Positions 61,402 to 63,796 of a DNA stretch of 64,000 nucleotides are shown piece by piece; within the stretch, counting starts at the first letter, position 1, and every line of letters begins with the position of its first letter. This DNA is from a phage. Made by a program: the position numbers and the translations under genes. The notes under the pieces are model-generated. The model worked only from the letters and a program-made list of their open reading frames with translations. It ran no database searches and had not been told where the DNA came from. The stretch lies in NCBI GenBank assembly GCA_017822615.1, contig GCA_017822615.1_4530.1; one strand, written 5' to 3'.

Positions 61402-61430
61402 TTGACTTGCGGGATTAGTTATGATATTAT
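61402..61430 (+). promoter_or_regulatory. promoter TTGACT-N17-TATTAT
   Basis: Lies between the 61397 stop and the terminator hairpin; predicted start site falls inside the 5' arm of that hairpin. Confidence 0.5.
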
Positions 61431-61459
61431 GCCTACCTACTTAATGAGGTAGGCTTTTT
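61431..61459 (+). terminator. rho-independent terminator overlapping the promoter output
   Basis: gcctacct-acttaatg-aggtaggc 8-bp stem followed by TTTTT. Confidence 0.55.
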
Positions 61460-61469
61460 AGGAGGCGTT

Positions 61470-61679
61470 ATGAAAAAGATTCTGACAGTCGTTCTTTTAG
61501 CTTTTAGTTTCACAGTAGCAGCAGGTCAAATTACTTTAATCTTGTCTGATTCTGAAGTTAATGGCAACACAAAATATTGCTACTATTCTAACGCTAACCA
61601 AGATGAAGTTATAGCAATCCCGAAAAGTCGTCAATGTCCGTATACTAAAACATTCTCAACAGAGGATGACGATGAATAA
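61470..61679 (+). CDS. small secreted protein with signal peptide
   Basis: 69 aa; MKKILTVVLLAFSFTVAAG signal-like N-terminus, two Cys, acidic C-terminus; RBS AGGAGG. Confidence 0.55.
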   Translation: MKKILTVVLLAFSFTVAAGQITLILSDSEVNGNTKYCYYSNANQDEVIAIPKSRQCPYTKTFSTEDDDE

Positions 61680-61691
61680 TTAGGGGGAAAT

Positions 61692-62810
61692 ATTAGCGGT
61701 TATATTTTAATTAAACCTGAAGATCTTCATTTATATGTCAACGAAGAAACAATAGCTGCAATTGATTATGATCAGATCGCTTTCCAAGCAGCGTCTGCAT
61801 TAGAGAAAAGAACAATCATTGCGAAGCACATCCCTTCAGGTGCTCAAAAGGAATTTAAAAATAAGACAGAGTTTTGGGGTAAAAGCAAGACTAAAATTGG
61901 AGGTTGGCTAGGAGATACAAATGCAGAAAGAGCCTCCAAAAACAAACGTCCCTTCACAAAGGAAGAGTTCGAAATCATTGATAAGCAATATCCGCCAGAA
62001 GATATCGGACACACCTTCCAAGCAGCTAAAACAAAAGTCTTAGGTATTCTAAAACATCTACGTTTAGAAAAATATTGCGGAGTTATTGGCGTAGGAAAAA
62101 CTTTCAGACACGCCTTCAAAATGCCTGTAGAATATAAATCTGAACGATTAGATATCAAACCACTCCAGCTTTCAGAAACCAAAGATTATCTTGTGGAGTT
62201 CCACAATGGTGATGTTGTTACTGTAATAGAAGCTGATGATGAGTTAGAGAAGTATGGTTTCCAAGGTTATAAAGATTATAAAAGGACGGGTAAATTTTCT
62301 TATATCGTTGTATCTATAGATAAAGATAGTTTACATACTCCTAGTATCCTTTTTAATTTCTACAAAGAGGATGGAGTATTTAAAAATCCAGATATAATTC
62401 TTATTGACGAGTCTATTGGCGACATATGGATCGTAGATAAAGGTAAAAAGAAAGAAGTTAAAGGTTGGGGCAGTTACTGGTTAGCATATCAGATGCTAAT
62501 GGGAGATAAAACAGATAGTATCCGACCTTATCAAGATTTTGATATTAAGTTCGGAGATATTACTTGTTTTAATCTTCTTTCAGCTTGTAAAACTCAAGCA
62601 GAACTTTTCCAAACAGTTAAAGATACTTACTACTCATGGTTCCCAGATGGTGTTAATTTTACTTCTTGGGATGGAGAAGAAGTCCATATGACAACAGATG
62701 AATGGATAGAAACAATTTTCCAGTTGGTATACATGAAACGCTGGGATAATGACGATACAACATTTGAGAGTATGCTTCAGTCATACATCTCGCAACAGGA
62801 GGCAGAGTGA
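61692..62810 (+). CDS. 5'-3' exonuclease / flap endonuclease (T7 gp6-like), non-canonical start
   Basis: Frame open from 61680; AIDYDQIAFQAASA resembles T7 gp6 MDGDWLVFQAMSA, VVSIDKD resembles IISCDKD, GDKTDSI helix; no ATG/GTG/TTG before 62121, so ATT at 61692 after AGGGGGA is proposed. Confidence 0.5.
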   Translation: MSGYILIKPEDLHLYVNEETIAAIDYDQIAFQAASALEKRTIIAKHIPSGAQKEFKNKTEFWGKSKTKIGGWLGDTNAERASKNKRPFTKEEFEIIDKQYPPEDIGHTFQAAKTKVLGILKHLRLEKYCGVIGVGKTFRHAFKMPVEYKSERLDIKPLQLSETKDYLVEFHNGDVVTVIEADDELEKYGFQGYKDYKRTGKFSYIVVSIDKDSLHTPSILFNFYKEDGVFKNPDIILIDESIGDIWIVDKGKKKEVKGWGSYWLAYQMLMGDKTDSIRPYQDFDIKFGDITCFNLLSACKTQAELFQTVKDTYYSWFPDGVNFTSWDGEEVHMTTDEWIETIFQLVYMKRWDNDDTTFESMLQSYISQQEAE

Positions 62811-63766
62811 GCAGATTAACAGAAGAGCAGAAAGCAGATATCCTTAGTATGAGTGCAGAGGGTATGTCTTCTCGCAATATTGCAGCAATTGTTTTAGGTA
62901 GTCCAACAAGAAAAAGCACAGTGAACGATTTCCTTGCACGATTCGGAGCAAGTAAACAAGAGCCAGTTAAAAAGAAACAACCAGTTATTAAAATTATTGA
63001 TGTTGAAACTGCACCAGAGATTGCATATACTTTCCGTCGATTCAAAGCCTTCATTTCTCCAGATCAAGTAATTCGTAGGGGTTATTTGTTATCTTACTCT
63101 TCTGCCGACCTGTATACTGGTGAAGTGGAAGGTAAGAACTTGTCTTCTTATCCTCTTTTTGATATTGATCATACAGATGATTGGGAGCTTTGCCAAGATC
63201 TTTGGAACCTTCTGAATGAGGCAGATGTAGTTGTGGCACACAACGGATATAAGTTTGACCGTGCATACATTAACCAACGATTTGCATATCACGATATGGC
63301 TCCTCCTTCTAATTATGTAGTTGTTGATACATTGAAGGCAGCTAAGAAACAATTTGCACTTCCTTCCAACTCCCTTAAAGAAATGGGAGCATATTTCGAA
63401 ACAGAAAGTGAAAAACTGGATAACGAGGGGTTCCCTTTATGGAAAGCATGTTGTGAAGGTGATCGTGATGCTTTTGAACGTATGCAGATTTACAATGATG
63501 GTGATGTTGTTTCGCTCCGTGATTTGTATATGAAAATCCTTCCGTGGATTCCACAGCATCCTAACTTATCCGCTTATTACACAGATGAGAAGGTCCGTTG
63601 TTCTCGTTGTGGCAGTGATCACGTTCACGTTGTTACTGGTAAACAATACCACACTGCGGTAAGTTCTTTCGATATCATTCGTTGTGAATCTTGTGGAGGT
63701 TTGTCACGTAGTAGAGCAAACACCAGATCCAAAGATAAACGAGCAGCAACTATTATTGGAATCTAA
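62807..63766 (+). CDS. DnaQ-like 3'-5' exonuclease with N-terminal HTH and C-terminal zinc ribbon
   Basis: GTG start; HTH-like NIAAIVLGSPTRKSTVNDFL; Exo I IDVETA, Exo II VAHNGYKFD, Exo III YNDGD; CSRCG...CESCGG. Confidence 0.6.
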   Translation: MSRLTEEQKADILSMSAEGMSSRNIAAIVLGSPTRKSTVNDFLARFGASKQEPVKKKQPVIKIIDVETAPEIAYTFRRFKAFISPDQVIRRGYLLSYSSADLYTGEVEGKNLSSYPLFDIDHTDDWELCQDLWNLLNEADVVVAHNGYKFDRAYINQRFAYHDMAPPSNYVVVDTLKAAKKQFALPSNSLKEMGAYFETESEKLDNEGFPLWKACCEGDRDAFERMQIYNDGDVVSLRDLYMKILPWIPQHPNLSAYYTDEKVRCSRCGSDHVHVVTGKQYHTAVSSFDIIRCESCGGLSRSRANTRSKDKRAATIIGI

Positions 63767-63770
63767 TAAT

Positions 63771-63796
63771 CAGGGAGCTTATTGCTCCCTTTTTTA
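63771..63796 (+). terminator. rho-independent terminator
   Basis: gggagc-ttatt-gctccc hairpin followed by T6. Confidence 0.6.

Follow-up and report, generated by a model that had tools for sequence, protein, structure and literature searches.

In Escherichia coli the codons AUA, AUC, AUU and CUG form a near-cognate class that initiates translation at 1-2% of the level of AUG, and infC and pcnB are the only genes of this bacterium with a confirmed start of the AUU class (Hecht et al., bioRxiv 10.1101/063800). Other measurements placed AUU six- to eight-fold below AUG, i.e., at up to about 15% of it (Osterman et al., PMC3592434). Both infC (IF3) and pcnB have their AUU preceded by a Shine-Dalgarno (SD) sequence, as is the case in the gene described here. 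In infC the stop codon of thrS is located a few nucleotides before the AUU, a layout similar to that of the phage locus below, and initiation is a mixture of de novo entry and reinitiation (PMC3592434). For pcnB, a paper cited in PMC3592434 is reported to show that the weak start limits output.

The enzymes D15 of phage T5, RNase H of phage T4 and gp6 of phage T7 (PF02739/PF01367) belong to the same superfamily of nucleases as the protein studied here, which has 12-20% identity to the solved structures. The T5 and T4 enzymes are annotated with ordinary starts. So is T7 gp6, unlike the gene that we describe, which comes from a 64,000-nucleotide stretch of phage DNA that was analyzed as a whole (referred to as the window) and in which the head of the reading frame contains no canonical start codon.

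Gene order and transcription unit

The 1.5-kb region around the gene is 100% identical to Escherichia phage vB_EcoM_Schickermooser and is found at 95-100% identity in 65 phage records, nearly all of them from Phapecoctavirus (phAPEC8-like, Stephanstirmvirinae). The local order is a MazG-like pyrophosphohydrolase, an RdgC-like protein (PF04381), a 69-aa protein with a signal peptide (phrog_4641), the exonuclease and a DnaQ-like 3'-5' exonuclease (PF13482). The last three genes are likely one transcription unit, bracketed by a promoter-like site and two terminator-like hairpins (Table 1).

Table 1. Features of the exonuclease locus, in window coordinates unless another sequence is named
Feature	Position	Strand	Remarks
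Predicted sigma-70-like promoter TTGACT-17-TATTAT with TG-extended -10, upstream of the three-gene unit	61402..61430	+	Consensus scan, 10/12 matches
Terminator-like hairpin and T-run ending the RdgC-like gene	61431..61454	+	Annotated terminator in NC_048196
69-aa small secreted-protein gene, signal peptide, phrog_4641	61470..61679	+	TAA 12 nt before the putative exonuclease start
Shine-Dalgarno AGGGGGA	61682..61688	+	4 nt before the putative start codon; unpaired in the predicted mRNA fold
Putative ATT initiation codon of the exonuclease gene	61692..61694	+	Aligned starts of relatives; annotation of ESCO13, NC_047770
Predicted full-length CDS of FEN-family 5'-3' exonuclease / flap endonuclease, 372 aa and TGA	61692..62810	+	
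Codons Asp25-Tyr26-Asp27 (IDYDQ), with the first metal-ligand Asp, at the end of strand beta1	61764..61772	+	Missing from the 229-aa model
Commonly annotated truncated ORF, 229 aa from Met144; no separate gene	62121..62810	+	Starts 4 codons before Y148-K149
DnaQ-like 3'-5' exonuclease gene	62807..63766	+	PF13482; GTG overlaps the exonuclease TGA (GTGA)
Terminator-like hairpin closing the three-gene unit	63772..63790	+	
Exonuclease as annotated in Justusliebigvirus	L081 (phi92, NC_023693) 1038-2072; L004 697-1731; L082		

The -10 element of the candidate promoter adjoins the terminator hairpin of the RdgC-like gene (61402-61454). A transcript from this promoter (61402-61430) would begin in the 5' arm of the hairpin and would therefore escape termination. 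At the other end of the exonuclease gene, the GTGA overlap at 62807-62810 has the typical layout of translational coupling from the FEN gene to the DnaQ-like gene, which in some records (e.g., MH160766) begins at an ATG 14 codons downstream.

A reading frame without a canonical start codon

The TAA at 61677-61679 closes the 69-aa gene, and a frame in the same phase opens at 61680 and continues to the TGA at 62808-62810. This had been noticed in the first-pass annotation, as had the lack of ATG, GTG and TTG in the 147 codons ahead of 62121; both statements hold for the window, and a script count over the 147 in-frame codons of 61680-62120 gave zero for the three codons together. Their in-frame frequency in the long ORFs of the window is 4.4%, which puts the chance of 147 codons without any of them at ~0.0013. 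When the whole window was scanned for long start-less ORF heads, the exonuclease gene was the sole protein-like case. Four sense codons (TTA GGG GGA AAT), none of them of start type, separate the TAA from an ATT at 61692, the first of three in-frame ATT codons in the head of the frame (the others are at 61704 and 61710). The first canonical start codon of the frame is Met144, inside the core fold of the protein.

The encoded nuclease

Read from the ATT at 61692, the product has 372 residues and matches phrog_107 ("exonuclease") over residues 10-367 with an E value of 1.4e-55. An AlphaFold2 model of very high confidence (pLDDT 95.6, pTM 0.89), computed from an alignment of 38 sequences, has the layout of the FEN superfamily, in which a PIN-like alpha/beta core precedes a helical DNA-binding region (H3TH). 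Upstream of Met144 this model contains a strand at residues 16-25 that ends at D25, a helix at 26-37 and two further strands at 93-100 and 127-137. Residues D25, Y148, K149, E180, D182, D183, D210, K211, D212, D272 and D275 are invariant in the 38 sequences, and R152 and D27 are conserved in at least 90% of them. The 5'-nuclease motifs (D25; Y148-K149..R152; E180-A-D182-D183; D210-K211-D212; D272/D275) align motif for motif with those of the Taq 5'-nuclease and T7 gp6.

The N-terminal 143 amino acids are part of the enzyme; they are under purifying selection, lie in the core fold and hold D25. For codons 2-143, dN/dS against relatives (NG86) was 0.07-0.2, values that are given only where computable, dS being saturated for many pairs. 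It had been proposed from the letters of the DNA that the 147 codons before the ATG at 62121 encode the N-terminal region of a nuclease, and the fold, D25 and the phrog_107 match agree with this; both alignment and model put the region upstream of 62121 within the nuclease fold. The ORF 62121..62810 was also rightly described as devoid of the catalytic N terminus, the first catalytic Asp (D25) being upstream of it. The 229-aa product of this ORF would lack one metal ligand, beta1, alpha1 and two more core strands, i.e., three core strands in total.

Similarity searches against known nucleases recovered this relationship to different degrees. No nuclease family was matched in a Pfam scan of the 376-aa frame. 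PF02739 was matched by 13 of the 38 homologues with E values of 1e-5 to 1e-6, under the 34.3-bit cut-off, which T7 gp6 itself clears narrowly (36.5 bits). The sub-threshold PF02739 scores are those of a divergent subfamily with an insertion and no argument against the fold. A phmmer search against PDB sequences gave no match, and a profile search gave a weak match to Taq (E 0.2) with the motifs correctly placed. BLASTP found no significant similarity to T7 gp6 (best E 0.35), and hhalign against the same protein reached a probability of 93% (E 3.6e-7) for residues 129-290 vs. gp6 81-213 only. The correspondence of IAAIDYDQIAFQAASALE to T7 gp6 ILVMDGDWLVFQAMSAAE appears only in a non-significant BLASTP segment, and the N-terminal alignment of IDYDQIAFQAASA with T7 gp6 MDGDWLVFQAMSA only in a segment with E=20. 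The latter makes structural sense, the catalytic Asp being the last residue of strand beta1 in the model. The label "T7 gp6-like" given at first is apt only at the level of the superfamily, significant similarity being limited to the core motifs, and the N-terminal match quoted in its favor is non-significant.

A family-specific insertion of ~60 residues (~38-100; window 61800-61990) follows helix alpha1 and precedes the next core strand. It consists of a beta-hairpin and helices, in which H46, S49-G50, F55, T59, F61-W-G63, W72-L73 and N77 are conserved.

Taking sequence and model together, the gene appears to encode a complete FEN-family (PIN-like plus H3TH) 5'-3' exonuclease / flap endonuclease of a Phapecoctavirus replication-recombination module, with a predicted structure-specific 5'-nuclease activity.

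Start codons in related phages

Related loci were collected with a 12-sequence alignment as query, and our table of junctions holds 45 non-redundant ones, drawn from GenBank phages, IMG/VR and metagenomes. Among the 26 junctions whose protein has at least 49% identity to that of the window, the codon aligned to ATT 61692 is ATT in 12, ATC in 10, ATA in three and CTG in one; none has a canonical ATG, GTG or TTG at this place. These counts follow a by-eye correction of the codons picked by the script at two loci (L033 and L040), and the pick at L007 was also corrected. The clade with weak starts is made up of ~150-kb myoviruses, namely Stephanstirmvirinae together with relatives from metagenomes whose protein identity goes down to about 50%. 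Canonical codons are found at the aligned position in more distant phages: ATG in CR3-like phages and others (MGYPVV..., at most 43% identity), GTG in a further metagenomic group (at most 43% identity) and TTG, after AGGAGGG, in rV5-like phages (MSREYP..., 37% identity).

In almost every junction of the weak-start clade, GGAGG or GGGGG is located 4-5 nt upstream of the start (at L033 and L040 this spacing from GGAGG was read by eye from the sequence, the script having chosen another codon). Between the SD and the start, the intervening triplet is free to change (AAT, AAC, AGG, AAG, TAA, GTT, AGT, TTA, TTT), whereas the codons after the start (S-G-Y-I-L-I) differ between lineages mostly at synonymous sites. 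L017, L028, L029 and L031 have an in-frame TAA directly before the ATC, and in these four lineages the ORF can start nowhere else.

Translation very probably starts at ATT 61692, giving the gene model 61692-62810, since this codon is aligned to the ATG, GTG or TTG of the distant relatives and is, in four lineages, the first one after an in-frame TAA. The same codon, after AGGGGGA, had been the preferred candidate before any comparison, and the junctions now speak for that choice. GGGGG and the AUU are separated by 4 nt (8 nt on the scale of Osterman, which counts from the central G); this spacing is near the lower limit of what is usual and counts against this start. In the predicted mRNA fold both the SD and the AUU are unpaired, and folding of the mRNA around the start gave no significant structure (z -0.56), hence no evidence for a riboregulatory element. 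The AUU at 61692 would be translated from the strong SD AGGGGGA, 4 nt away, within an unstructured stretch of mRNA, and by analogy with established E. coli biology the initiator tRNA presumably reads it, so that the protein would begin with fMet.

The upstream gene and the route of initiation

A homologue of the small secreted-protein gene is located directly upstream of the exonuclease in 20 of 20 weak-start lineages, with its stop codon 8-21 nt before the start and often overlapping the SD (TAGGAGG). Among the lineages examined that start with ATG, GTG or TTG, none has the small gene adjacent to the exonuclease. In the window, part of the initiation events would probably come from ribosomes that have just terminated at the stop of the small gene, 12 nt before the AUU. 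A coupling like that of thrS-infC is plausible, with reinitiation as a possible contributing route.

A more extreme version of this would make reinitiation obligatory: the AUU and its SD would be unable to recruit free 30S subunits, and the output of exonuclease would be strictly slaved to the translation of the secreted-protein gene. The constant presence of the small gene in front of the weak starts, with a stop usually overlapping the SD, and its absence next to the canonical ones are what one would expect in such a case, and at an infC-type UAA-GGU-AUU junction reinitiation accounts for about half of the translation. However, in those experiments the shares of de novo initiation and reinitiation were roughly equal and neither was exclusive (Osterman et al., PMC3592434), and infC and pcnB indicate that an AUU can recruit ribosomes alone. 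A strong conserved SD at a fixed spacing is a requirement of de novo initiation, and no feature of the sequence forces reinitiation to be the only route. We regard an obligatory dependence as unlikely, though it is the alternative that survives best.

As to the small protein itself, a signal peptide is annotated for its phi92 homologue. It has two conserved Cys and an acidic C terminus (..TEDDDE). The phrog_4641 homologues (L004-L070) are strictly syntenic with the weak-start exonuclease, within a replication-recombination module.

Other readings of the junction

Initiation could also take place a little further into the ORF, at a different near-cognate codon such as the in-frame ATT at 61704 or 61710; moreover, model confidence is somewhat lower for the N-terminal residues 1-7 (pLDDT 87 in the first block). 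At 16-22 nt, these codons are too distant from the SD; the stretch S-G-Y-I-L-I between 61692 and the later ATTs is conserved by mostly synonymous changes; and the canonical starts of the distant relatives align to 61692 and not to 61704 or 61710. A start at either of them appears very improbable.

Even less credible is that a canonical start is masked by an error of sequencing or assembly, or that the gene is a decaying pseudogene making only the 229-aa product from ATG 62121, despite the fact that this shorter ORF alone is annotated in most GenBank records. The sequence from the stop to the ATT is identical in 12 independently sequenced genomes or contigs, the only change being C for T at 61680 in phAPEC8, which excludes the assembly error that had been considered initially, and the region is covered by the 65 phage records cited above. 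The purifying selection on the N-terminal 143 codons, their confidently modeled core fold and the invariant D25 speak against decay, as does the loss of three core beta-strands from a product beginning at Met144.

The least tenable reading, readthrough of TAA 61677 that would join the signal-peptide protein to the exonuclease, has in its favor that in the window both ORFs are in phase with a single TAA between them, but it is excluded because the phase is not conserved (four of ten junction arrangements are out of frame: L004 of Justusliebigvirus, L013, L033 and L040) and because double stops (TAG..TAA, TAA TAG, TAA..TAG) occur in in-frame lineages (L017-type, L018/L019 and L064), besides TAA being the least leaky stop and a nuclease fused to a cleavable signal peptide making no biological sense. 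Counted between the first bases of the two codons, stop and start are 15 nt apart in the window, 11 in Justusliebigvirus (L004) and L033, 14 in L013 and 17 in L040. The first-pass annotation had listed readthrough among its options and had laid emphasis on the shared phase, and neither survives the comparison of lineages.

A metagenomic gene call of 444 aa (P0005) looked at first like a natural fusion of the two proteins. It is an artefact; the underlying DNA has an ordinary TAG that was translated as Q by the gene caller. This stop is at L011:2208-2210 (Logan contig of SRR30397360), and the caller apparently chose a genetic code with TAG recoded. The start-less head of the exonuclease can mislead code-inference tools into calls of stop-codon reassignment.

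Annotation in public records

In the record of phage ESCO13 (NC_047770) the same CDS is annotated from the ATT, with an RBS feature placed by hand. Its product, a "putative exonuclease" (phrog_107; YP_009786567.1 / UniRef100_A0A1Q1N971), is an identical, Met-initiated protein of 372 aa that is present in 12 UniProt entries of Phapecoctavirus. Neither the ESCO13 record nor the genome announcement remarks on the unusual start. We have searched the literature for phAPEC8, ESCO13 and ATT/AUU starts in phages and found no paper describing this start codon or the pattern in the clade. The ATT gene model is thus already deposited, and it is the clade-wide pattern of weak starts that was not found described.

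Most records contain shorter models. The 229-aa version appears in 10 of the 11 Phapecoctavirus records examined, which miss 143 residues, and on at least 385 contigs, compared with the 12 UniProt entries of the full protein. In the three phi92-like records examined (Justusliebigvirus; ESCO32, phi92 and PaulScherrer) the annotated start is a GTG inside the DYDQV motif, 28 codons downstream, so that 28 residues are cut from the N terminus, the invariant Asp among them; the record of phi92 carries the note "No RBS identified; weak Prodigal statistics". Gene callers confined to ATG, GTG and TTG will continue to spread the truncated model. phAPEC8-like and phi92-like phages are widely proposed for therapy, so that correct gene models matter.

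Within the N-terminal part of the exonuclease gene, but out of its frame, the records of phAPEC8 (G377_gp266), Ro121lw and vB_Ec-G1 list a 40-aa ORF with an ATG (61921-62043, + strand) as a "hypothetical protein". This ORF is almost certainly a false call that occupies the gap left by the truncated exonuclease model.

A possible role for the weak start

The T5 and T7 relatives of the nuclease are toxic when over-expressed, and a weak codon would most likely cap the dose of the enzyme. The start codons found in the clade are exactly the AUA/AUC/AUU/CUG class of bioRxiv 10.1101/063800. With dS saturated and ATG one third-position change away, the retention of near-cognates only suggests that low output has been selected. 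This argument is statistical and the lineages are phylogenetically non-independent, with ~10 of them effectively independent; the absence of a third-position G across these ~10, were Ile and Met equally acceptable, is only suggestive. The case for dosage and toxicity is one of analogy, and we give the combined rationale of dosage control and coupling about an even chance of being right. More tentatively, and with the odds somewhat against it, the weak start may be a maintained regulatory device that is always tied to the stop of the small secreted-protein gene, the synthesis of nuclease being set by termination-reinitiation and/or by the IF3-to-ribosome ratio of the host, in what would be a phage counterpart of thrS-infC.

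The value of these observations lies in the correction of a widespread mis-annotation and in the finding of weak starts throughout a clade, tied to an upstream gene. Four interchangeable near-cognate starts provide a natural system to test selection for dosage on weak start codons and also the share of reinitiation at near-cognate codons.

Comparison with known systems

With regard to the protein, the insertion with its KNKTEFWG / GGWL motifs is absent from the canonical FENs (T5, T4 RNase H and ExoIX). With regard to the start, the exonuclease gene would, on the evidence of its sequence, belong to the known class of AUU-initiated genes. Unlike infC and pcnB, it is a nuclease gene of a phage and not a translation factor, with no feedback loop evident, and its start is not fixed as AUU but drifts among AUU, AUC, AUA and CUG across the phage clade.
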